This document shows positions 6,915 through 25,920 of a DNA stretch of 64,000 bases, one piece after another. A program made the translations under genes and the position numbers. The stretch's first letter is position 1, and the number at the start of each line of letters is the position of its first letter. The stretch comes from Patescibacteria group bacterium (GTDB taxonomy: Bacteria > Patescibacteriota > Patescibacteriia > SG8-24 > DYFX01), in assembly GCA_030583805.1 (NCBI GenBank), contig CP129476.1, positions 669,640 to 733,639 on the forward strand, written 5' to 3'. The notes under the pieces are model-generated. The model worked only from the letters and a program-made list of their open reading frames with translations, searched no databases and was not told the origin of the DNA.

Positions 6915-8037
6915 ATGTCAGAAACCAAAACCGCTAAACTCGACCTGAAGGCCCTGCTCGAAGACAAGAGCTGGCTGAACATCCCGAAGGTCGGCGACGT
7001 CGTCAAAGGCGTCATTATCTCGCTCTCCAAGAACGAAATCCGCATCGACATTGACGGCTATAAGACCGGTGTCGTTCGCGGTCGCGAACTGTTCGCGGAA
7101 GCCGTCGAATACGCCGATCTCGCGGTCGGCCAGGAAGTCGAAGCGACCGTCATCGATCTCGAAAACGAGCTCGGCGAGGTCGAATTGTCGTTCCGCTACG
7201 CCGGCCAGCAGAAGGCCTGGGAAGTCCTCCGCAAGCTCATGGACTCCGGCGAACTCGTCGACGCCAAGATCATCGAAGCCAACAAGGGCGGCTTGCTCGC
7301 CAACGTGAACCACGTGAACGGCTTCCTCCCGGTTTCGCAGCTCTCCCCCGACAACTACCCGCGCGTGTCCGGCGGCGACAAGATCAAGATTCTCGAGAAG
7401 CTGAAGAGCTTCGTCGGCACCACGATGAAGGTCAAAGTCATCGACGTGAACGAGCGCGAAGAGAAGCTGATCGTCTCCGAGAAGTCCGTCTGGGAAGAAG
7501 CCCAGAAGGGCGTGCTCGACAAGTACAAGCTCGGCGACGTCGTCGAGGGCACGATCACCGCGATTGCCGACTTCGGCGTCTTCGTGAAGTTCGACAACCT
7601 CGAAGGCCTCGTCCACATTTCCGAAATCGCCTGGCAGCGCATCGACCACCCGCGCGACCTGGTGAAGGTCGGCGAAACCGTCAAAGCCGAAATCATCGGC
7701 ATTGAAGGCTCCAAGATCTTCCTCTCGATGAAGAAGCTCATCCAGGACCCGTGGAAGACGGTCAACGACAAGTACAAGATCGGCGACAAAGTCGAAGGCA
7801 AGATCCTGAAGATCAACCCGTTCGGTTTCTTCGTCGAACTCGACCGCGACATCCACGGTCTCGCGCACATCTCCGAACTCTCGAAAAAACCGGTCAAGAA
7901 CGTCACCGAAATCGCGAAGATCGGCGACACCATGACCTTCAAAATCGTCTCGATCGAGCCGGAACAGCATCGCCTGGGCCTCTCGCTGAAGGCTCTCGAA
8001 GAAGGTGGTTCCAGTGAGGCCGAGGCTCCCAAAGCCA

Positions 8038-8045
<8 letters not shown>
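6915..8045 (+). CDS. rpsA: 30S ribosomal protein S1 (four S1 domains, short form)
   Basis: 376 aa with four repeats of the S1 RNA-binding domain (GDVVKGVI..., GQEVEATV..., GDVVEGTI..., GDKVEGKI...). Confidence 0.9.
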
Positions 8046-9855
<1,810 letters not shown>

Positions 9856-18314: not shown

Positions 18315-18389
18315 GGCCTCATCGTCTAACGGTTAGGACAGCTCCCTTTCACGGAGCAGATAGGGGTTCGATTCCCCTTGGGGCTACCA
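18315..18389 (+). tRNA. tRNA-Glu (anticodon UUC)
   Basis: Hand-folded cloverleaf. The acceptor stem is GGCCUCA/UGGGGCU with 2 G-U pairs. The D arm is GTCT/GGAC. The anticodon arm is GCTCC-cTTTCAc-GGAGC. The T arm is AGGGG-TTCGATT-CCCCT. CCA is encoded. Confidence 0.8.
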
Positions 18390-19878
18390 AAAGCGACCTT
18401 CCTTCCGGGAAGGTCGTTTTTATTGCAAAGATTGGCGACAAAGCGGTAGTTCCAAATTTGTTTCCGTCGAAAGTCAGTCTTTCCTTGAAAATTAGGTTCT
18501 GAAAACGGATACGGGCGTGATGATTGCCTTCAAGGCCCATCCATGTCTTGGCGGGCTGACCAATAAATTTAAAGCAGTAGTCCATAGCCCCCTGCAGATC
18601 AAAGTCGTCCTTTCGGTTATCTTCTATCAGCGAGTATTGGACGTCGAGCCTCTTGCTATTCAATGCCCGCTGCTCCTGAAAATCCTCATCACTATATTTT
18701 CCGTTTCGGTGTAATTCAAAGATTTGCTGACGCTCGATCTTCAGCTTTTCAATAATCTGTTGTACGGCAGCCTCTCGTTTGTCAAAACGTCGGTGATTGG
18801 ACTTCCAAATGTCCATAACAACCGATTTGAACAACTTCTCGTATTTCTGATCGGGAGCGATTGTAGAAAGGTGCTTAACAAAAGTACTTTCAAATTTATC
18901 TTTTGCGATTGTTTTTTTCTTGGAGCACGCACTATTGGAGTGGTGGTAATAGGGGTAGCGCTTACCTTTCCACCCTCGCGTGTTGCTACCAGTTAGTGGC
19001 GACCCGCATTCAGCGCAGCAAATAAGTTTCCGTAGTGGAAACATAGAATTATCAGTTTCCCGAGGTACGGACCAGCTGGAACGTTGGCCCGTCGGCTGCT
19101 GGCACGCCCGGAAAAGTTGCGGGGCAATAATAGGTTCAAAGCCGCCCACCCATTCCTCACCAAAAGCTTTGATAACTCCGCAATATGCCGGGTTGCGTAG
19201 CAGCTTTTGGACCTCTTGCGGCAGGATGGGTTTCTTACGTTTCGTGAGCAAGCCTTGCTTTGTCAAGAAATCCGCCATTTCCTTATAGGTCTTCTCCCCC
19301 TTCGCGTATTCTTCAAAACCTGCACGCACAATGGGCGCCATGATCGGATCAGGAACAATATGCGTTCTTTTACCGCGCAGAGGTTTGTAGTACCCCAGAG
19401 GTGGTATCCAAACCCAGTACCCCTCCTTTGCACGTTGGATCATTCCATTTTTTGTTCGATTGGCACGTTGCGCATTATCGTATTGAGCAACAAGAGCATG
19501 GATACCTCCCATGAATTCACCCTCCGGGGTTTCGTTGATCGTTTCAGATACGGACCGCAAGCTCGTCCCATGCTTCAACAAGATTTCACGCACCCCTAAA
19601 TGCACCTGCGCGTTGCGAGAAAAGCGGTCCAACTTATGGACGATGAAGAAGGTGGGCTTGTTTTTCGTGCAGTAGTCAATCGCTGCCATAAACGCAGCGC
19701 GGTCAGCCGTTTTGGCGGATTGGCCACCCTCAACAAAAACCTTCAGGACGGTAATCTTGTTTCGCTGAGCATACTCGCGGCACTGCTCCTCCTGCGTCTC
19801 CAAGCTGGTCCCCTCAACCTGCTCTTTCGAAGAAACGCGGACGTAGATAATACATGTTTGGTTGGCCTGTGGGTTCAT
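18349..19878 (-). CDS. Large serine recombinase (integrase)
   Basis: 509 aa. The N-terminal resolvase catalytic domain (IIYVRVSSKEQ) is followed by a recombinase domain and a zinc ribbon (CCAECGSPL...). The last ~13 codons (...GIEPLSAP) are encoded by the complementary strand of the tRNA-Glu T-arm and acceptor. Confidence 0.85.
   Translation of the reverse strand: MNPQANQTCIIYVRVSSKEQVEGTSLETQEEQCREYAQRNKITVLKVFVEGGQSAKTADRAAFMAAIDYCTKNKPTFFIVHKLDRFSRNAQVHLGVREILLKHGTSLRSVSETINETPEGEFMGGIHALVAQYDNAQRANRTKNGMIQRAKEGYWVWIPPLGYYKPLRGKRTHIVPDPIMAPIVRAGFEEYAKGEKTYKEMADFLTKQGLLTKRKKPILPQEVQKLLRNPAYCGVIKAFGEEWVGGFEPIIAPQLFRACQQPTGQRSSWSVPRETDNSMFPLRKLICCAECGSPLTGSNTRGWKGKRYPYYHHSNSACSKKKTIAKDKFESTFVKHLSTIAPDQKYEKLFKSVVMDIWKSNHRRFDKREAAVQQIIEKLKIERQQIFELHRNGKYSDEDFQEQRALNSKRLDVQYSLIEDNRKDDFDLQGAMDYCFKFIGQPAKTWMGLEGNHHARIRFQNLIFKERLTFDGNKFGTTALSPIFAIKTTFPEGRSLLVAPRGIEPLSAP
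18393..18421 (+). terminator. Hairpin plus T-run immediately after the tRNA
   Basis: The sequence gcgaccttccttccgggaaggtcg ends in ttttt. Confidence 0.6.
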
Positions 19879-20198
19879 AGCTCATTCCGTACAATACCCA
19901 ATTTTTCGATGTTGGAGCCGACCCCAAGGGGTTTTTTGGAAAGATGATCTATTTTCCATCCCCGAGCATCGAAAGCTAGATGTCCGATGCCATACAAGAT
20001 TGCTAAAATACCCTCTAACTGCTCATTAGTGAGGTCTTTCAAGGCCGGATCGACTTTTCTAGCCTGTTTGGGCGAGAGCATCAGGAATAGCAACAAAAAA
20101 GCGTGCATGCCCACAACCCAAAAATAGGGGTTGTGAGGCATACACGCTTTCCGGCGATCCGACGTTATCGGACCGTACCCGGCTTCGGCGCTCGGCAA
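19875..20198 (-). CDS. Hypothetical small membrane protein
   Basis: 107-aa ORF that overlaps the recombinase start by 4 nt. It has one hydrophobic segment and low GC like the rest of the island. Confidence 0.35.
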   Translation of the reverse strand: MPSAEAGYGPITSDRRKACMPHNPYFWVVGMHAFLLLFLMLSPKQARKVDPALKDLTNEQLEGILAILYGIGHLAFDARGWKIDHLSKKPLGVGSNIEKLGIVRNEL

Positions 20199-20269
20199 AT
20201 TGCCGACGGTTGGGAAGACCTTATAGCGACAAGATTATATCTTTTTTGCACCCTATGCAAGTGCTGGTG

Positions 20270-22033
20270 TTATGCGGCTAGCTGCTCAAACACTGGGTCC
20301 AAACGTTCGGCTGCTACCCTTTTGGCACCGACCATTTTTGCCAGTTCCAAACACGCAACACCATATCCAATATTCTTCGAAGCAATATGGCGTTGATAAA
20401 ATTCCTTCAACATGGCTTTGCCGTGAAAACGATCTGTGGCCTTTCCCTCCGCCAATATTCCATCAACTACTTCGGTGGCATCAAGCACATAGCGCCCTAG
20501 GTCCGTGTCGTTAGGCAGCAATGCTTGAATTTCAGCCACCGCGCTTCTGTGGGCCTCCTTCACCTCCGCAACCGTAGCACCATTAAGACGCACCGTCCGA
20601 GTTTTTAACTTTTGACGAACGCGCCGTGCAATCTCGCTATTCTTCATGCTTGTAGCAATTACAACAAGCTCTTTCGAGAGTGCCGCTTCATCCGCAAAGG
20701 TATTCACTTCGATACTCAACAAGTACTGTTGCAGAATTTCCGGGTCTAAAAGGAAATTTTCGATCATGCATACAGGTAGCTGAAAAACGCCTGGGGTGCT
20801 TCCGAGAGATTGATCTGCGTCTACAAGACCCCTCACACGAATTCTATAGACGTCTTCGGGAACATGCTCGCGCAGACGAGTGACCGTATTAATGACATTC
20901 CCCTTACCACCCACTGGAACCAGTGTGTATGCAGTTGCCCTTGGATAAAAGATTTGAAGCAATCGAAGGTCGGAAGGCTCGTCGGGCGGTGCTGTCTCGC
21001 CTTCAATGCAAACCAGCGCTCGACCAGTGGTAAGGAAATAGGTACTACCAGCGAGTTGCTTTAGGGCCTCTAAGCGCTCAAGGCTAGATGCAATGCGCTT
21101 GAGTTGGTTTTCTTCCGGATCAGCTGACGGATTGGACAACAGGTACAACTCGTTGTCGAACGTCTGATCTAAGATGGTGGGTGAATGTGTAGTGAGAACG
21201 AATTGAGTTCTTGCAGTTGCTGCTTGGTTTCGTACGTAAGCAAGCAATTTTGATTGTAGGTCCGGGTGCAAATGCTGCTCTGGCTCATCCACTAAAAAAA
21301 CCCGATCCTCCGGCGCTCGAGCGGCCGGAGTGCTGCCAGACCCAATAGTTTCTAATTTCTCCAAATTCTCACGAATAGCGTCCTCCAGCAGGGGAAGGAA
21401 AAGAACGATGATCGATTTTTCGCCCGAACTCATGTCGTCAATATCAACCTCGATGGTGCCGCTGGCATCCTTACGAGCCCAGATACAACGGATATTTTCT
21501 TCGTCGGCAAAATCAATCCTATCGAAAACGAGGTGTGGCAATAGATACTTAGTCAGGTTTTCTAGGGGTTCGTAGATGCGCGGCAATGTTGCCGGATCAA
21601 TAGTTTCCCCATGACGTTGCTTTGCATCAACTACTCCAGCAATGATTGCCTGCCGCCGATTTTCGATCTTCCCTAGGGTATGCTTGATCGTACTACCAGC
21701 TTCATCGACGTTTCCGGGCGTGCGGGCAGAGTTATGAAAACTCAGGCCCTCGTAACCAGAAACATCATTGCCAGAAATCAAATCCGCAAGTGACCTAAGA
21801 CCGCCGGACAACCATCCACGCCTTACTTTAGTGGCGCGAAGAACACGGTGGGGCGGTTGATAAAAAATACGCGTGTTACCATCCGTGGTATTAGCACCTT
21901 GTTTAATGGCATATAAAAGCGTGGACTTGCCCACACCATTCGGACCAGCAATAACCATCACAGCCGGAACCTCTGTCGCTTCAGCTAGACGAATGGACTT
22001 GTTATTTACGACCCTGAAAGTTTTTAACCCCAT
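20270..22033 (-). CDS. OLD-family / PARIS (AriA-AriB fusion)-like ABC-type ATPase with C-terminal Toprim-like nuclease domain
   Basis: 587 aa. ABC-ATPase motifs seen: Walker A GPNGVGKST, Q-loop FYQPPH, signature-like MSSGEKS, Walker B/D-loop VFLVDEPEQHLHP, and H-loop LTTHSP. A C-terminal region with LVCIEGETA and GLVDADQS resembles the Toprim E and DxD motifs of OLD/DUF4435 nucleases. Confidence 0.6.
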   Translation of the reverse strand: MGLKTFRVVNNKSIRLAEATEVPAVMVIAGPNGVGKSTLLYAIKQGANTTDGNTRIFYQPPHRVLRATKVRRGWLSGGLRSLADLISGNDVSGYEGLSFHNSARTPGNVDEAGSTIKHTLGKIENRRQAIIAGVVDAKQRHGETIDPATLPRIYEPLENLTKYLLPHLVFDRIDFADEENIRCIWARKDASGTIEVDIDDMSSGEKSIIVLFLPLLEDAIRENLEKLETIGSGSTPAARAPEDRVFLVDEPEQHLHPDLQSKLLAYVRNQAATARTQFVLTTHSPTILDQTFDNELYLLSNPSADPEENQLKRIASSLERLEALKQLAGSTYFLTTGRALVCIEGETAPPDEPSDLRLLQIFYPRATAYTLVPVGGKGNVINTVTRLREHVPEDVYRIRVRGLVDADQSLGSTPGVFQLPVCMIENFLLDPEILQQYLLSIEVNTFADEAALSKELVVIATSMKNSEIARRVRQKLKTRTVRLNGATVAEVKEAHRSAVAEIQALLPNDTDLGRYVLDATEVVDGILAEGKATDRFHGKAMLKEFYQRHIASKNIGYGVACLELAKMVGAKRVAAERLDPVFEQLAA

Positions 22034-22346
22034 GTTTATTTGCTTGCTGACTTACGTTGGACAGAAGCGCCTTCACACGCTCCTTTTGATCATTGGACAT
22101 CCACTGTGCCCAATACCCCTGATATGAGGCAAGTTGTAGATAGGCGTTATACGCCGCGTCACCAGCGAATAGCTGTTGTGCCTGCGGTGAGCGGGTAACT
22201 AGTGTGGGGCTGTTGGTAGTGGCACGCAGCACCAGTCTTTGCGTGTCGGGCTGGTTATTTTCAGCGGTTTCTAAGCACCACTCAATATGGTCGAGCAATG
22301 CTCCATGCTTTGCGACATTATCACTGATTGGGATGCGAAAAAACAT
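22002..22346 (-). CDS. Hypothetical protein (114 aa), co-operonic with the OLD-like gene
   Basis: The ORF overlaps the downstream ATPase start by 32 nt. It has no known motif and the island's low-GC composition. Confidence 0.4.
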   Translation of the reverse strand: MFFRIPISDNVAKHGALLDHIEWCLETAENNQPDTQRLVLRATTNSPTLVTRSPQAQQLFAGDAAYNAYLQLASYQGYWAQWMSNDQKERVKALLSNVSQQANKHGVKNFQGRK

Positions 22347-22349
22347 ACT

Positions 22350-22562
22350 TCAGTTCTCGGTTCTCTCATTAATGAGCTCGCCTAAACATACAAGGTAAGC
22401 GACGCTAATGCCTACCACGAAAGCACGTTGTACCATTCCGCCACCGAAGACGTAGCCCAGAAGTGTGCCGCCAACAAACGCTGCGACCTGCTGAAGAATG
22501 ATCCTGCGAATTGGTGCCTCGCCTATTCCATACCAGCCCCAAAACCCTCTCTCTTTTTTCAT
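22350..22562 (-). CDS. Small two-TM membrane protein (hypothetical)
   Basis: MKKERGFWGWYG... with two hydrophobic helices. It is the first gene of the three-gene minus-strand operon. The start is uncertain (no SD). Confidence 0.35.
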   Translation of the reverse strand: MKKERGFWGWYGIGEAPIRRIILQQVAAFVGGTLLGYVFGGGMVQRAFVVGISVAYLVCLGELINERTEN

Positions 22563-22815
22563 ACCCGTGGTTGGATTTATTGGCAGGACGCACAAAGCTC
22601 CCCGCCAGCGATGGCTTGCGCCACCCATGCAAGTTTCCCTGCATGACCAACCACGGTGCTCTGACGAGGAGCCCTATACCGTGGTTGGTTTAGATGCCGT
22701 GCCCAGCGTTTTAGGCTGGGGTTAGGCACTATGAATTGTGGTGGTAATTTATCACATCTGGACCAGAAAGCTACAATGCTCGCTCCAAGACGCCTACTTT
22801 CAAAATTCGCTAAAC

Positions 22816-24273
22816 ATGGCTAGGCTTGTTAGCAACACCCCCCCCTTCACTCAGAAGACAATGATTGAAAAAACTGAAATAGAGGCCAAGGCAAAGGAGT
22901 TTGAGCTACACGTCGCAAATGTACAACGTGACTATGTTTTTGGTTGGCTACTTTTTGGTATTTTTACTTCAAGCAAATTAAAAGATCAGATTTTTTTGAA
23001 AGGCGGAAATGCATTACGCAAAGGGTATTTCCGTGACACACGCTTTTCAAGCGATTTGGACCTCGGTATTCCAAATGACATTGAACAGACTGTTTTGCTC
23101 GATGAGTTCAATGCTGTCTGCGCCTTTGTTGAGCATCACGCGGGGATTTCATTTGTTACGGATGAAAATAAAGTTGAGGAGAAGTTTGCCGCCGCCGAAG
23201 CGCCGATCCCTGGGTTGCGGGTCTATGAGGCCCGGATTTATTTCAGGGATTTCTATGGTAAAGCCGATCATTTCAAAATAAAGGTGGCGATGGACATCAC
23301 CCGTTTCGACAAGGTTCTATTACCGATACAATCGGTTGATTTGATACATCCATACTCTGATGCCAGCGATGTCGCCTGCAAAATCCAGTGTATGAAGTTG
23401 GAGGAGATCATCGCCACGAAATTGAAATGTCTTTTGCAAAGGGAGCATGCTCCTGATTTGTTCGATTACGTATATTCAATCAAACAGCTGGGCGGCGAGC
23501 TCAACAAAACCGAGGTAATTACGACGCTGGTTCAGAAAACAATTTTCGGACGCAACCCACATGTTCTGAAATGTATTCTACGAAATACACCTTTTGACTA
23601 TTTCAAAAGCTATTGGGCAACGACCGTTGTGTGTGCGAAACAATTTATCTTTGGAGTAGAAGAAGCAATTACGTTTTTTCTTTCTGACCTCGAAGGCTTG
23701 TTCACCATTTACCCGGATAATGGCTTCGAAGCGTTTGCTTACTTTGGACCAGAATTGAGATTGCCGATCATGAAGGCTGGGAGAGAGCAGACACTGCTCA
23801 AAATTTGCTATAAGGGAGCGGATAGGCTGGTCGAGCCCTACTCTCTGAAGTACATGCAACGTAAGGATGGCGTAGAGAGAGAATATCTATACGTCTACAA
23901 TCTAAGCGGCGGAGATAGCGAGCCCGGAATACGTTCATTTGTCGCGGAGAAAATTGAAGCAATCGAAAATACGAATGAAAAATTCGCCCCTCGGGCGCAA
24001 ATCGAATTATCAAAGGCTGGAGAGCTACCAGAAAATCCATACCTTTTTGACCCAGATAGGCCAACTCCCGCTCCACGCCCCCGCCATCGCGTCAGTAAGT
24101 TGACCCGAGGCTGGGGAAGCGCGGCGTCGTCAATCAAATACATCTATCAGTGTAGCTATTGCGGTCGAAAATTTTCTAAATCGAAACATGACGGATCGCT
24201 GCGAGAGCACAAAGACAAGGGAGGCTATCGCTGCGGAGGTAGGCACGGCTTCTATGTCGACACAAAATACTAA
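22816..24273 (+). CDS. AbiEii/DUF1814-like nucleotidyltransferase fused to a C-terminal zinc-ribbon (candidate abortive-infection/defence protein)
   Basis: The N-terminal motif IFLKGGNALRKGYFRDTRFSSDLDLG matches the AbiEii-type pol-beta NTase signature (hGG-x9-13-DhDh). The C-terminus YQCSYCGRKF...H...H..C...C is Cys/His-rich. The start is uncertain (22738 GTG, 22816 ATG, or 22861 ATG). A possible -10 TACAAT lies at 22772-22777. Confidence 0.6.
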   Translation: MARLVSNTPPFTQKTMIEKTEIEAKAKEFELHVANVQRDYVFGWLLFGIFTSSKLKDQIFLKGGNALRKGYFRDTRFSSDLDLGIPNDIEQTVLLDEFNAVCAFVEHHAGISFVTDENKVEEKFAAAEAPIPGLRVYEARIYFRDFYGKADHFKIKVAMDITRFDKVLLPIQSVDLIHPYSDASDVACKIQCMKLEEIIATKLKCLLQREHAPDLFDYVYSIKQLGGELNKTEVITTLVQKTIFGRNPHVLKCILRNTPFDYFKSYWATTVVCAKQFIFGVEEAITFFLSDLEGLFTIYPDNGFEAFAYFGPELRLPIMKAGREQTLLKICYKGADRLVEPYSLKYMQRKDGVEREYLYVYNLSGGDSEPGIRSFVAEKIEAIENTNEKFAPRAQIELSKAGELPENPYLFDPDRPTPAPRPRHRVSKLTRGWGSAASSIKYIYQCSYCGRKFSKSKHDGSLREHKDKGGYRCGGRHGFYVDTKY

Positions 24274-24664
24274 ACTTGTTTCCGTTGATTTCGTTCCACG
24301 ATAGCTCGTATATCTGCCGAAATCTGTGCCAGGCCGGGAAACTCGAGTTGTTGACGTTCGCCCCACCCCTCAACCCATTGAAGCCACAGCTTACGGTCTG
24401 CGGAGGCACCCGAACTTGGGCTCACAGCTCTCTTGTAAAGAGCCTGAATAACGTCGGGGGTTTTGTCTTTGGTCCAAGCAGCCATTGATCTTCGGACGCG
24501 CTCATCAAATCCGGTGACGAGCCTCCAATCAGAGAGTGTCGCCGGATCAACATCCAAAAGCACTGCCAATTCTTTCTGATTACGTGGACGTCGCAGAGGT
24601 GTAGGAAGCGCACACCACGCAACAAATTTCTCGAATTCGACTATCTTTTTTGTAAGAGACATAA
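24270..24664 (-). CDS. Small HTH DNA-binding protein (terminase-small-subunit-like, or a possible recombination directionality factor)
   Basis: Start MSLTKKIVEFEKF. The predicted HTH is ...NQKELAVLLDVDPATLSDWR. It is convergent with the NTase gene and is the last gene of the low-GC island. Confidence 0.4.
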
Positions 24665-24820
24665 TTGGCTTAAATTGGCATAGCGACGCCCGTTCCATCA
24701 CCTCGTGGCACCTAGTGTGTAGGAACGATAGTCCTGCGAGGAAGGCTGTCAGCAAAGAGCTTCCATTGTTTGAGCTCGGCCACGATTTCGTTCCAGATTT
24801 CAGTGGTCCGGGCTACCACC

Positions 24821-24855
24821 AAAACACCCGCCTAAACGGCGGGTGTTTTGTTTTT
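24821..24855. terminator. Bidirectional terminator at the right edge of the island
   Basis: The hairpin acacccgcctaaacggcgggtgt is flanked by aaaa on one side and tttgttttt on the other. Confidence 0.65.
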
Positions 24856-24873
24856 AAAAATTAGGCGCGAATC

Positions 24874-24936: not shown

Positions 24937-25920
24937 GTGAACAATGACGTAGTGGTCTTTCCAAGAGACTTCGCCCCGGCTCACGCCTTGCAGAACCCCG
25001 AAACGCTGATCGCCTGCGGCGACGCGGTCTCGGCAGGATCGGTCTCGGGCGACACCATCGAGGTCGACGTGGGTTCACGGCCGCTTCGGCTCGTCCTGCG
25101 GGGCTTCAAGATCATGGATCCCCCGAGGCCCGCCCGATCCAACGGCTCCAACGCCCTGTACCTGGCGAGCGGCAAGGACAAGCGGGACGGACTCCTGCTG
25201 CAGTACCTTCCGCCGCACGCGACGACGTCGCTGCACTTTCACGCCTGCACCCGCGAGACGTTCCACCTGCTGGCCGGCCAGGCCGCCCTCAGGACGCCCT
25301 GGGGTACGGAAGTTCCCCTGAACGTGCGCCGCAGCGTCACCAACGACGAGTTCGTCCCGCACCAGGTCGTGACCGCCGAATCCGCATCGGTCATCCTGCT
25401 CGAGATGGCATTGCCGTCCGAGTCCACGGGCATGAAGGATCACTTCTACGTGGACGCGAACACCGCGCTCGACATCCATTCCAAGGGTGCGTATCCATCT
25501 TCCGAGCTGAGCAACTTCGCAGCGCACGGCTTCTCCATCGACGGCGTCGACTGCGCTTCGATGGAGGGGTTCCTCCAGTCCCTCAAGGAACCCGATCCGG
25601 AAGTCCAGCGCATGATCTGCAAGCTCGTCGGCGGCGAAGCCAAGCGCCGCGGCGAGAAGTTGAACCTGGCCAGGCTGCCCTCGGATCCGCTCCACTGGCA
25701 GGGTCAGGTCATCGATCGTCGATCGCAGTCATACCAGCAGCTGCTGGACCGAGCCTACGCGGAGCTGGCGAAGAGCGGCAGCTTTCAGAAAGCGCTGGCG
25801 GCCACGGGGGAAGCCCTGCTGGTACACAGCATCGGCAAGAAGCTGCCGGAAGACACGATCCTCACGGAGACGGAGCTGTGCTCCAGGCTGCTGCGGATTC
25901 GATATTCGCTGCAGTCGTGA
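24937..25920 (+). CDS. Hypothetical protein with N-terminal cupin-like domain
   Basis: GTG start with a GGAGG SD. The segment TSLHFHACTRETFHLLAGQAAL resembles the cupin HxH...E...G motif. The C-terminal ~150 aa are unassigned. Confidence 0.5.
   Translation: MNNDVVVFPRDFAPAHALQNPETLIACGDAVSAGSVSGDTIEVDVGSRPLRLVLRGFKIMDPPRPARSNGSNALYLASGKDKRDGLLLQYLPPHATTSLHFHACTRETFHLLAGQAALRTPWGTEVPLNVRRSVTNDEFVPHQVVTAESASVILLEMALPSESTGMKDHFYVDANTALDIHSKGAYPSSELSNFAAHGFSIDGVDCASMEGFLQSLKEPDPEVQRMICKLVGGEAKRRGEKLNLARLPSDPLHWQGQVIDRRSQSYQQLLDRAYAELAKSGSFQKALAATGEALLVHSIGKKLPEDTILTETELCSRLLRIRYSLQS

Follow-up and report, generated by a model that had tools for sequence, protein, structure and literature searches.

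Serine integrases, which are major tools of genome engineering, act in one direction, and normally only a separate directionality factor reverses this. In large serine recombinases (LSRs), the DBD2 motif is offset by 4-5 bp between attB and attP half-sites, this outer, zinc-ribbon motif being farther from the centre in attP (PMC11722253). Integrases of the SSV type, which occur exclusively in Archaea, have their recombination site within the integrase gene, so that integration partitions the gene (PMC8371274). In cluster G, N and P mycobacteriophages such as BPs and Brujita, attP is located within a coding gene, at its 3′ end, and attB at a tRNA; integration of BPs and Brujita removes an extension at the C-terminus that finishes in an ssrA-like tag (--LAA), the integrase is tagged too, and there is no directionality factor (RDF) (PMC9262239). 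Serine recombinases beside tRNA genes are also on record. One report describes Thermotogota and Firmicutes proviruses with serine recombinases next to tRNA-Glu, -Phe and -Pro (bioRxiv 10.1101/2020.11.07.368316), and the TIGER survey assigns 14 of 297 S-Int islands to t(m)RNA genes, stating that use of tRNA genes by S-Int had not previously been reported and needs proof (PMC7192596).

We analysed a 64,000-nt stretch of a Patescibacteria genome (hereafter the window) that contains a low-GC island at a tRNA-Glu gene. The best explanation of this locus, to which we give a probability of about 0.8, is a 6,429-bp element that was inserted by its own LSR, that has attP inside the LSR gene, and whose exchange of the enzyme's C-terminal tail would act as a sensor of integration state. 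An earlier note on this DNA had proposed a recently acquired, mobile, defence-carrying island at tRNA-Glu; composition, junctions, an intact LSR and a relative with an empty site all support that proposal.

The island (18390 to 24818) is sharply foreign in composition and its att junctions are precise. Its GC content is 48.6%, against 61.6% in the rest of the window (z = -18.8 relative to 179 other 6.43-kb segments, which span 60.3%-63.7%), and its tetranucleotide profile correlates with that of the remaining window at only 0.21, compared with 0.93-0.97 for the other segments. The profile that the earlier note had suggested as a check sets the island apart; the boundaries given in that note were correct to within about 40 bp, and the drop in GC that it saw at the tRNA is real, although its figures of 65% and 45% overstate the step. 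A direct 9-bp repeat, GGGCTACCA, stands at both island ends, as the attL core at 18381 to 18389 (tRNA nt 68-76) and the attR core at 24810 to 24818. These are the only two copies in 64 kb, where 0.12 would be expected by chance. The crossover must lie inside the GGGCTACCA copy of the attL core, and beyond the 9 repeated bp the sequence beside attR is not tRNA-like.

We compared the att sites of 34 elements. In the window, attL and attR are identical over a block of 9 bp; such blocks measure 4-13 bp in 33 of the elements compared, and in the remaining one (L020) no exact block was found. The blocks share GT[AG]N, corresponding to tRNA nt 71-74, which from this alignment marks the insertion point as the extreme 3′ end of tRNA-Glu(UUC). 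The arrangement departs from that of a classical Islander-type island, as the only recombinase present is of the serine rather than the tyrosine type, and no displaced tRNA 3′ fragment of tens of bp was found, only 9 bp being repeated.

The tRNA-Glu(UUC) gene itself (18315 to 18389, forward strand, ARAGORN) is whole after insertion. Directly after its CCA end the element supplies a hairpin and T-run (18389 to 18421, forward strand; -21.3 kcal/mol, z -6.1, flagged as terminator-like), which sits on the opposite strand within the recombinase ORF, at the codons for KTTFPEGRSLL. A palindromic peptide, KETSLxEKSLL, in close LSR homologs points to the same hairpin. The original terminator of the tRNA is the hairpin at 24820 to 24850 (forward strand; 13-bp stem and T-run, -23.7 kcal/mol, z -6.7), now 6.4 kb from the tRNA because of the island insertion. 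It resembles the hairpin found directly after the homologous tRNA in a relative (L084, TsaD 87% identical) that has tRNA-Glu and then its native terminator without an island, so that the empty site sought by the earlier note does exist. The closest relative (L082, 96% identical in TsaD) has a different element, with a tyrosine integrase, at the same tRNA. Judged by fold and position, the element's hairpin takes the place of the displaced terminator; integration keeps the tRNA whole and provides it with a new terminator from within the recombinase coding sequence.

The first island gene, which the earlier note had read as a large serine recombinase, extends from 18349 to 19878 on the reverse strand and encodes 509 amino acids in its integrated-state form. 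That reading was confirmed by Pfam matches to Resolvase (PF00239, 2.5e-31), Recombinase (PF07508, 1.6e-11) and Zn_ribbon_recom (PF13408, 1e-8). All of the catalytic residues (R14, S16, D84, R85 and R88) are present, and in a 40-sequence alignment R14, S16, R85, R88, C288, C291 and C318 are invariant and D84 nearly so (at least 90%). An AF2 model predicts long helices at 344-391 and 397-422, and in Foldseek searches with this model full-length SPbeta Int (E 3e-19) and the Bxb1 and LI integrases were matched. By domain searches and model, the protein is predicted to have the catalytic domain, Recombinase domain and coiled-coil-bearing zinc ribbon of an LSR. The comparison with phage integrases raised earlier upholds the LSR fold; cultured-phage and viral relatives are distant (best 28-32% identity). 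The only record of the window LSR is in the Logan assembly.

The LSR ORF overlaps the tRNA by 41 nt, comprising the stop codon and 12 2/3 codons, and residues 500-509 (PRGIEPLSAP) are read antisense to the tRNA acceptor and T-arm. The earlier note saw this antisense overlap correctly and treated it as a detail, whereas it is family-wide. Of 80 related genome loci, 56 have the stop codon of the LSR gene within a tRNA that runs antisense to it (tRNA-Glu in 50, tRNA-Lys in 3, tRNA-Ala in 2 and tRNA-Arg in 1), and 104 of 120 LSR protein homologs end in the tRNA-antisense peptide ..LV(A/T)xxG(I/V/F)EP... The same two types of tail are seen in metagenomes down to 33% identity. Hosts include Patescibacteria and other Bacteria, and such elements are found in at least several hundred species-level genomes, mostly Patescibacteria. 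From these sequence comparisons, overlap of the LSR gene with a tRNA is a property of the whole family, common to hundreds of related elements.

The second tail type was found at the other end of the island. On the reverse strand at 24712 to 24816 the translation reads V-A followed by 32 codons and a stop (VARTTEIWNEIVAELKQWKLFADSLPRRTIVPTH), in the same frame as V498-A499 at attL. In 33 further islands, 3.8-11 kb in size, an in-frame tail remnant is likewise present at the far end; this alternative tail is about 32 aa long with the motif V..WN..EL..W..F. In free forms (L013, L018, L055, L070, L077, L129, L151 and others) the tail is joined to the LSR. Specifically, the LSR of L013 runs on without a break into 172 nt whose counterparts in L005, L007, L008 and L011 are found at the opposite island end. 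As sequence comparison of free and integrated forms shows, attP is located in the LSR gene, within its 3′ end, and integration swaps the C-terminus of the enzyme; the free form therefore encodes a 531-aa enzyme that ends in a conserved amphipathic helix. Integration cuts the gene after V498-A499, leaves its last 32 codons behind at the other end of the island, and fuses the gene to 10 codons running antisense through the tRNA acceptor and T-arm, while excision would rejoin the tail and restore the 531-aa recombinase. We observed no excised circle, and no locus occupying a whole contig had terminal overlap; tandem copies could therefore also yield the free-form junctions.

The two arms that are exchanged resemble each other. 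The sequence GAAC occurs at +18 in the B′ (tRNA) arm and at +23 in the P′ (tail) arm in 34 of 34 elements, and the aligned arms show the tail-side P′ arm to mimic the tRNA T-arm B′ with an exact 5-bp outward shift. This shift is the known attP/attB signature of LSRs, by which serine integrases tell attP from attB. The outward shift was found for the P′/B′ pair only, and neither P nor B displays it. Sequence conservation is seen in P′ and B′ but not in B; attB is only the universally conserved T-arm and acceptor end of the tRNA. An inverted copy of the P′ motif was not found in the P arm. Each of these features, the unconserved B arm and the P arm that lacks the inverted P′ motif, is unusual for LSR sites.

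Several features of the tail bear on whether its exchange matters to the protein. The simplest alternative is an ordinary serine-integrase island in which the LSR is complete at about V498, the ORF merely runs on to the first stop in the tRNA or in P′, and conservation of the tail reflects only a DNA-level constraint on attP, so that the C-terminal exchange is a neutral by-product. In keeping with this, the P′ motif falls on the tail residues that vary least (W-N, TGGAAY), where pS is 0.08 among close relatives, pLDDT is low in the linker that precedes the tail (490-494), and the tail of the integrated state is set purely by tRNA sequence. Conservation nevertheless runs at least 12 codons past the half-site of about 30 nt, and in a contrast based on 12 codons in 6 related sequences the tail codons beyond the half-site have pS 0.33 and pN 0.00, synonymous change being free and non-synonymous change absent. 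Across 76 unique tails, to 33% LSR identity, a heptad-like L..EL..W..F pattern and a modal length of 32 aa are maintained, and AF2 confidently predicts a helix at 502-521 (pLDDT 80-90). The last residue is Ala in 22 of 76 tails against a background of 9% (p 9e-7, a value that is optimistic because the tails are phylogenetically related); seven of the 76 end in AA, including ..SLAA, and four in LAA. Beyond the P′ arm, these patterns indicate that the tail evolves under protein-level constraint, and we consider a neutral exchange unlikely.

If the tail is functional, its exchange would give the element a built-in sensor of integration state that alters the directionality of the LSR, its stability, or both. 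The swap may control either property; in SprA integrase, F532, a residue at the extreme C-terminus, was earlier shown to matter for directionality control. The free element would encode an enzyme with a putative C-terminal docking helix, often with an ssrA-like Ala tag, that is integration-competent and short-lived. The integrated enzyme would have no helix and would be excision-competent or locked. The tail of the window's own element ends in ..IVPTH, with no Ala-type end, and the idea of a degron is therefore not obviously applicable to this copy. No recognisable RDF was found in the island, and the proposal that the LSR family has a self-contained switch of directionality or stability, with no need for a separate RDF, is a tentative one to which we give somewhat less than an even chance. 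A candidate accessory or directionality factor, judging by its position, is the small ORF at 19875 to 20198 (reverse strand, conserved core from about 20081), which overlaps the LSR start. Homologous small ORFs hold the same position before the LSR in five other islands, and searches of Pfam, PHROG, NCBIfam and PADLOC gave no match.

The exchange could instead be suicidal, the integrated, tail-less LSR being inactive and excision requiring an intact copy in trans, as proposed for SSV-type integrases, for which attP within the integrase gene is the defining trait (PMC8371274). Free copies are far fewer than integrated ones, and arrays of two or three remnants (L005, L042, L061, L126 and L141), together with an LSR scar in L085, show that elements accumulate at the site and degenerate there. 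Integration costs the gene 32 of its 531 codons and no more, however, and the catalytic and DNA-binding domains are all intact. Hundreds of integrated copies also retain full-length ORFs, an argument that the integrated form is still under selection. We regard lock-in as rather improbable.

The cargo of the island includes defence-like genes. The gene at 20270 to 22033 (reverse strand) encodes a predicted PARIS-like AriA-AriB fusion, in which an ABC-type ATPase is followed by a DUF4435/Toprim-like C-terminal part. The OLD/PARIS-like ATPase-nuclease of the earlier note was thereby recovered: PADLOC matched AriAB (4.9e-43, residues 239-552) and AriA (7.6e-24), and Pfam matched AAA_21 (3.4e-21) and AAA_15 (4.8e-17), whereas the DUF4435 match is weak (1.5e-4; 22 bits, under the curated cut-off of 27). 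Upstream of it are two small ORFs of 114 aa and 92 aa (22002 to 22628, reverse strand) with no family match in four libraries and no homolog in 33 sister islands. The AbiEii-type nucleotidyltransferase noted earlier (22738 to 24273, forward strand) is also present (Pfam AbiEii PF08843, 3.9e-21; PADLOC AbiEii, 3.7e-45; WYL weak), to be corrected in that it stands without its partner: the AbiEi models of Pfam and PADLOC match none of the island's ORFs, and the gene upstream is divergent in orientation and unassigned. The start codon is likely the ATG at 22816, and the gene caller begins the protein at MARLVSN. At its C-terminus the protein is extended by about 220 unassigned aa, which finish in a cluster of Cys and His residues and give only weak zinc-finger matches. 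The small HTH protein of the earlier note corresponds to an ORF at 24270 to 24755 (reverse strand; true start probably 24698 or 24659), which exists but whose HTH signal is weak (HTH_Tnp_1_2, E 0.011; terminase small subunit phrog_2538, E 0.018). Gene calls on the Logan assembly omit it, and it is a singleton among islands; were the element excised as a circle, about 13 nt would separate it from the end of the full-length recombinase gene ahead of it. The cargo of sister elements differs, comprising other genes for defence, restriction-modification and toxin-antitoxin systems and in some cases rolling-circle Rep genes.

The weak terminase-small-subunit match of the ORF at 24270 to 24755 speaks for the alternative of a phage satellite or degraded prophage that is moved by a helper phage, with the defence genes as satellite cargo. 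Clear Terminase_2 proteins are encoded in two sister islands, distant LSR relatives (at most 32% identity) are found on IMG/VR viral contigs, some of them beside tRNAs, and Thermotogota proviruses with serine recombinases adjoin tRNA-Glu (bioRxiv 10.1101/2020.11.07.368316). In the window's own island, by contrast, capsid, portal, large terminase, Rep and primase genes were not found and all phage-type matches in the window are above E 0.01. Searches of 2.9 million viral contigs and of 50,697 phage records gave no close relative of the LSR, the best identity being 28-32%, and we regard a satellite as distinctly improbable. A foreign low-GC contig misjoined or misbinned into a high-GC genome is scarcely credible despite the large compositional step and the metagenomic origin of the assembly, since both junctions have exactly the structure found in 33 other islands, with the end of the tRNA, a tail remnant in frame and a terminator moved away from its tRNA, and a separately built Logan contig spans both with the same arrangement.

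The preferred reading, an element inserted by its own LSR with exchange of the tail, has consequences beyond this locus. If the family does have the self-contained switch proposed above, it would be a dedicated LSR clade that targets tRNA 3′ ends and the first case of a self-splitting integrase of the serine type in Bacteria, a counterpart to those of Archaea. An integrase whose C-terminus is rewritten by its own reaction would be a new and compact way of coupling enzyme behaviour to integration state. The family also bears on a question posed in work on integrative elements, why serine integrases seem not to use tRNA genes (PMC7192596); annotation pipelines probably truncate or drop such LSR genes because they overlap a tRNA. 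In these reduced genomes the family appears to be a main vehicle for small defence, restriction-modification and toxin-antitoxin cargo.

Two of the cargo genes fit described defence systems with differences. PARIS combines an ABC-type ATPase (AAA_15/AAA_21) and a DUF4435/Toprim nuclease, encoded separately or as a fusion, in an abortive defence that phage anti-restriction proteins set off. The gene at 20270 to 22033 fits the fused AriAB and AriA ATPase models of PARIS, with the AriB-like half sub-threshold in Pfam, and that at 22738 to 24273 fits AbiEii models of AbiE, differing in the missing AbiEi neighbour and the added C-terminal extension. Among mobile elements, tycheposons resemble the LSR family as small tRNA-gene elements with variable cargo, sometimes including Rep or TerS, and with arrays beside the tRNA. 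They differ in having tyrosine recombinases in 910 of 937 cases, Prochlorococcus hosts and no described internal attP. The Thermotogota and Firmicutes proviruses and the TIGER islands share with the window a serine recombinase beside a tRNA, most often tRNA-Glu; these are prophages of tens of kb for which tRNA recognition is only hypothesised, and the passages that a term search retrieved from the two accounts describe neither gene-tRNA overlap nor an internal attP or tail exchange (bioRxiv 10.1101/2020.11.07.368316; PMC7192596).

The integrases of SPbeta (SprA), Bxb1, phiC31 and Listeria LI/A118 have the same domain set, fold, tiny core and 5-bp attP shift as the window LSR. However, cultured-phage LSRs are at most 28% identical to it and none covers the family-specific C-terminal domain; unlike theirs, the target of the window LSR is a tRNA 3′ end, its attP lies within the ORF, only one attB half-site is conserved, and no recognisable RDF accompanies it. 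With BPs and Brujita the family shares an attP in the 3′ part of a coding gene, an attB at a tRNA and the lack of a recognisable RDF. Many free LSR tails end in ..LAA, ..AA or ..LA, which may be comparable to the tags of BPs and Brujita, although that of the window does not. In those phages a repressor is split, and a tyrosine integrase acts on a core of about 35 bp that rebuilds the tRNA, whereas in the window family a serine integrase is split at a core of 4-13 bp. As in the SSV-type integrases (SSV1, pTN3 and pT26-2), tRNAs are targeted and the recombination site lies within the integrase gene, which integration partitions. Those enzymes are archaeal tyrosine recombinases whose gene is split into two substantial parts; here a bacterial serine recombinase exchanges its last 32 codons and its ORF stays open through the tRNA. 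In the literature searched we found no description of an LSR with attP in its own last codons and tail exchange.

The only tRNA gene in the window, that for tRNA-Glu(UUC) (18315-18389, plus strand), stands at the left edge of the island. In a sliding profile of the window, GC content plunges right after the tRNA 3′ end and climbs back near 24.85 kb. The island (approximately 6.43 kb, from the tRNA end to 24819) has 48.6% GC against 61.6% for the remainder of the window (z = -18.8), and the lowest value among 179 windows of the same size is 60.3%. Its tetranucleotide correlation with the remaining window is 0.21 (0.93-0.97 for other windows), and GC3 is 0.47-0.54 in island genes versus 0.66-0.84 in flanking host genes. 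The abrupt step reported in an earlier note is real, but its two levels are about 62% and about 49%, not 65% and 45%.

The genes named in that note were also recovered by the ORF map and family searches. They comprise a large serine recombinase (LSR) of 509 aa (18349-19878, minus strand), an ATPase-nuclease of 587 aa (20270-22033, minus strand) that matches the fused PARIS model AriAB best (4.9e-43) and is intact with the P-loop GPNGVGKST, and an AbiEii protein of 511 aa (22738-24273, plus strand) that has no AbiEi neighbour and carries an additional 220 aa with weak zinc-finger and WYL-like signals. Four small ORFs have no family assignment; searches with the 107-, 114-, 92- and 161-aa ORFs against Pfam, PHROGs, NCBIfam and PADLOC returned just two hits, both to the 161-aa ORF and both above E 0.01. 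The ORF described as a small HTH protein exists, but its HTH identity is weakly backed (E 0.018 and 0.011). The reading of a mobile defence island at tRNA-Glu stands, and by itself the island is a small defence island of the ordinary kind. The first gene of host composition past it (24937-25920, plus strand, GC 0.64) joins a weakly matching cupin domain to a domain that strongly resembles phage T4 Gp30.3 (PF08010, 2e-47) and is odd for a Patescibacteria chromosome.

Both edges of the island are marked by the 9-mer GGGCTACCA, which occurs twice in the 64-kb window (chance expectation 0.12), once closing the tRNA (its final nine bases, 18381-18389) and once at the far island end (24810-24818). 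The window contains no direct repeat longer than this 9-mer, and therefore a duplication of the tyrosine-integrase type is ruled out. Directly right of the second copy lies a hairpin with a 13-bp stem and a T-run (24820-24850; -23.7 kcal/mol, z -6.7), and a different hairpin lies directly right of the tRNA (18389-18421; -21.3 kcal/mol, z -6.1). In a related locus that lacks an island (L084; TsaD identity 87%), ACCA-TCGAAAAACACCCGGTTACGCCGGGTGTTTTT comes immediately after the homologous tRNA-Glu; this terminator is of the same kind as the hairpin at 24820. Because the tRNA of this empty site meets such a terminator, the island is a 6,429-bp insertion between the tRNA 3′ end and the native tRNA terminator.

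The assignment of the recombinase is secure, since it carries all three Pfam domains, its catalytic and zinc residues show no or almost no variation, and its AF2 model (mean pLDDT 88) matches the full-length SPbeta integrase (E 3e-19), Bxb1 and LI integrase. Its ORF crosses the hairpin of the element and then 41 nt of tRNA antisense, ending in ...SLLVA-PRGIEPLSAP*. At the opposite island end, the minus strand from 24816 to 24712 encodes ...V-A-RTTEIWNEIVAELKQWKLFADSLPRRTIVPTH* in the matching frame relative to the repeat. Joining of the two island ends, as by excision, restores an ORF of 531 aa. The predicted attP junction is TTCCAGATTTCAGTGGTCCGGGCTACCAAAAGCGACCTTCCTTCCGGGAAGGTCG, and the predicted attB junction is GGTTCGATTCCCCTTGGGGCTACCACCAAAACACCCGCCTAAACGGCGGGTG. 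The element hairpin is terminator-like on the strand of the LSR as well (18394-18416, minus strand, tail CTTTTGG), some 40 nt ahead of the stop codon used in the integrated state; were LSR transcription to end there, the mRNA would have no stop codon. For the exact LSR protein the sole record comes from a Logan assembly, while the neighbouring TsaD is also known from an NCBI genome, being identical to WKZ28616.1 of a Patescibacteria genome. One LSR homologue bears the name 'recombinase family protein, partial', and annotation pipelines may drop or truncate such genes owing to the tRNA overlap.

The same arrangement recurs widely. Among the best 120 homologues in our protein survey (43-64% identity, with lengths of about 500-540 aa in nearly all), 104 carry at the C-terminus ..LV(A/T)x(R/x)G(I/V/F)EP.., the peptide obtained by translating a tRNA acceptor and T-arm in antisense, and six to eight have LVxxxxxxWNxLxxELxxWxxF.. 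instead. A scan in which each species was represented by a single genome yielded at least 542 loci, most of them from metagenome-assembled genomes of Patescibacteria. Of the 80 loci fetched, 56 have an LSR whose stop codon falls within an antisense tRNA (50 Glu, 3 Lys, 2 Ala, 1 Arg). In 33 of these loci, a remnant of the alternative tail, still in frame, is found 3.8-11 kb upstream, at the far island end. In all 33, the residue following Val agrees between this remnant and the LSR/tRNA junction. Both tail types recur on metagenome contigs, down to 33% identity. A phmmer search with a family-specific C-terminal segment of 64 aa against 1.84 billion representatives gave 30 weak, mostly fragmentary hits and hence no usable family size.

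In five loci without an adjacent tRNA (L013, L018, L055, L070 and L077) the tail is attached to the LSR. The L013 gene is 84-87% identical to those of the integrated elements L005, L007, L008 and L011 as far as the junction. Past it, the L013 sequence runs on into 172 nt, 91-94% identical, that are found at the opposite island end of those four. This is an attP junction, and L013 is the clearest of the free forms. None of the whole-contig genome and metagenome loci has the terminal overlap of a circular contig, so the excised form is represented only by attP-type junctions such as this one.

In a comparison of 34 elements, the att sites follow the rules known for serine integrases. The block of identity between attL (the tRNA end) and attR (the far end) is 4-13 bp in 33 of these elements, L020 having no exact block, and the positions shared by the blocks are GT(A/G)N, corresponding to tRNA nt 71-74. 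The tRNA arm, B′, reads GTrrCCCnAnnGGGAATCGAACC, and the tail arm, P′, reads GTrrCCCaagTnGGannanaatTGGAAcCAg; in each of the 34, GAAC begins at position +18 of B′ and +23 of P′. Half-sites of LSR attP and attB are distinguished by a 5-bp outward shift of the zinc-ribbon-domain motif (4 bp in SPbeta) (PMC11722253), and the shift of GAAC is exactly this difference. The invariant Trp-Asn of the tail (TGGAAY) is therefore at least partly a DNA signal. The P arm carries no inverted copy of the P′ motif, and the B arm on the host side (40 nt beyond attR, 24819-24858 in the window) has essentially no sequence conservation across the 34 loci. In the subclade of the window, the B arm and the element P arm are both GC-rich hairpins followed by TTTTGG, a hint that a terminator-like shape is recognized, or that nothing specific is.

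These sequence comparisons show the course of integration. The LSR recombines a site within its own 3′ coding end with the final bases of the tRNA gene; the tRNA stays whole and gains a terminator supplied by the element, and the LSR ORF is closed again by tRNA-antisense codons. The detached 32 codons are retained at the far end and are rejoined in attP-type junctions.

The detached tail itself has the features of a protein segment. In a close group of related sequences (L005, L007, L008, L011, L012 and L013), the ten codons of the P′ arm have pS 0.08 and pN 0.06, and the next twelve have pS 0.33 and pN 0.00. Across 76 unique tails, most commonly 32 aa long counted from Val, the pattern (L/I)xx(E/D)(L/I)xxWxxF(G/A) is kept, and the AF2 model places a helix at residues 502-521 (pLDDT 80-90) behind a low-confidence linker, the part encoded by the hairpin. 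The tail is thus probably under selection as protein, and is confidently predicted to form an amphipathic helix just past the zinc-ribbon/coiled-coil module. In SPbeta Int, the RDF binds at the hinge between zinc ribbon and coiled coil. We favour, at a probability of roughly 0.4, a reading in which the tail exchange matters functionally, its likeliest role being control of directionality and/or stability. The rival reading, that the exchange is a neutral by-product, seems to us unlikely. An SSV-like lock-in is more doubtful still.

Phages with integration-dependent immunity carry ssrA-like tags on integrase and repressor (PMC9262239), and the Ala-type ends of many tails recall these tags. Ala terminates 22 of the 76 tails against a background of 9.2% (p 9e-7, a value that ignores relatedness among tails), and seven end in AA, including ..SFSLAA and ..SLSLAA; the tail of the window ends in ..IVPTH.

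The occupant of the tRNA-Glu site differs among close relatives. In the closest found (L082, ENA ERZ21828292 contig-100_1152; TsaD 96%, flanks approximately 88% identical), the tRNA-Glu is broken after the T-loop by a different element (7400-8830, matching window 18315-18375) and ARAGORN calls no tRNA; this element encodes a tyrosine integrase, an HTH_17 excisionase-like protein, a TrwB/DUF87 ATPase, a DnaG-type primase and RadC. A second relative (L085, GCA_964532415.1, CAZHHN010000010.1; 81%) has no recombinase, but the 68 nt after its tRNA-Glu (1883-1951) are homologous to the 3′-terminal 68 nt of the LSR gene, with 84% identity to the window over 147 nt including the tRNA; this stretch looks like the scar of a lost element of the family. 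A third (L001; 84%) carries a related LSR element (61% identical) with a 1,232-aa SNF2/DrmD-like helicase instead. The site is thus a hot spot with rapid turnover, which fits recent acquisition. Elsewhere, two tail remnants stand in series upstream of a single LSR in L005 (5352, 6413), L042 (4480, 5124), L061 (1472, 2618) and L126 (6493, 7178), and three in L141 (100, 2761, 3236). These series suggest that repeated integrations at one tRNA end push older, decaying elements outward, giving an additive island.

The cargo of 33 sister islands is diverse, 134 of their 183 ORFs being singletons. Five other islands have a homologue of the small ORF at 19875-20198 of the window, placed immediately before their LSR. 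A rolling-circle Rep (REP_ORF2-G2P) with visible HUH and Y motifs is encoded in eight, always immediately upstream of the LSR (L015:8891-9775, L025:9044-9814, L036/L042:8999-9817, L045:5008-5799, L056:9195-9809, L061:9012-9785 and L078:9088-9735), so some members of the family, at least, could replicate as free circles; no such Rep is present in the element of the window. Other products are RepSA (four islands), DNA methylases (four, plus one EcoRI-type methylase), ResIII (three), M78/IrrE peptidases (three), Terminase_2 (two), and AIPR, GmrSD, DUF4238 and SocA (single cases).

A phage origin of the LSR family is not supported, as relatives reach at most 32% identity in IMG/VR and at most 28% among cultured phages. 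The distant viral relatives share tRNA adjacency and AA-ended free tails. LSRs 28-32% identical on viral contigs have the same arrangement (L086:10001-11524 and L090:10001-11476 from IMG/VR; L088, L089 and L092), that of L086 reading into an antisense tRNA-Arg and that of L090 stopping 12 nt inside an antisense tRNA-His; free-form viral C-termini are ..LLAAA, ..MEAA and ..KGAA. The self-splitting design may predate the Patescibacteria family and extend beyond it.

In a review, self-splitting integrases are confined to Archaea and to the tyrosine type (PMC8371274). The TIGER survey states that no S-Int had been reported to use a t(m)RNA gene, with 14 of 297 cases and the remark that 'experimental proof will be required' (PMC7192596). 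Thermotogota proviruses beside tRNA-Glu carry serine recombinases, and the accessible part of a preprint on them describes adjacency only (bioRxiv 10.1101/2020.11.07.368316). A large LSR discovery paper makes no mention of tRNA. The full-text literature searched, in which subscription journals are poorly covered so that an earlier description is possible, yielded no LSR with an internal attP and no LSR family targeting tRNA 3′ ends. The element works as an integrative island of the LSR type and its enzyme belongs to the LSR family, but it differs from characterized LSRs in its tRNA target, in an attP internal to the LSR gene, in a single conserved attB half-site and in having no recognizable RDF. 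The recombinase brings to light a variant of serine integration that is widespread and apparently undescribed, and the hypothesis that its tail acts as a switch is testable.
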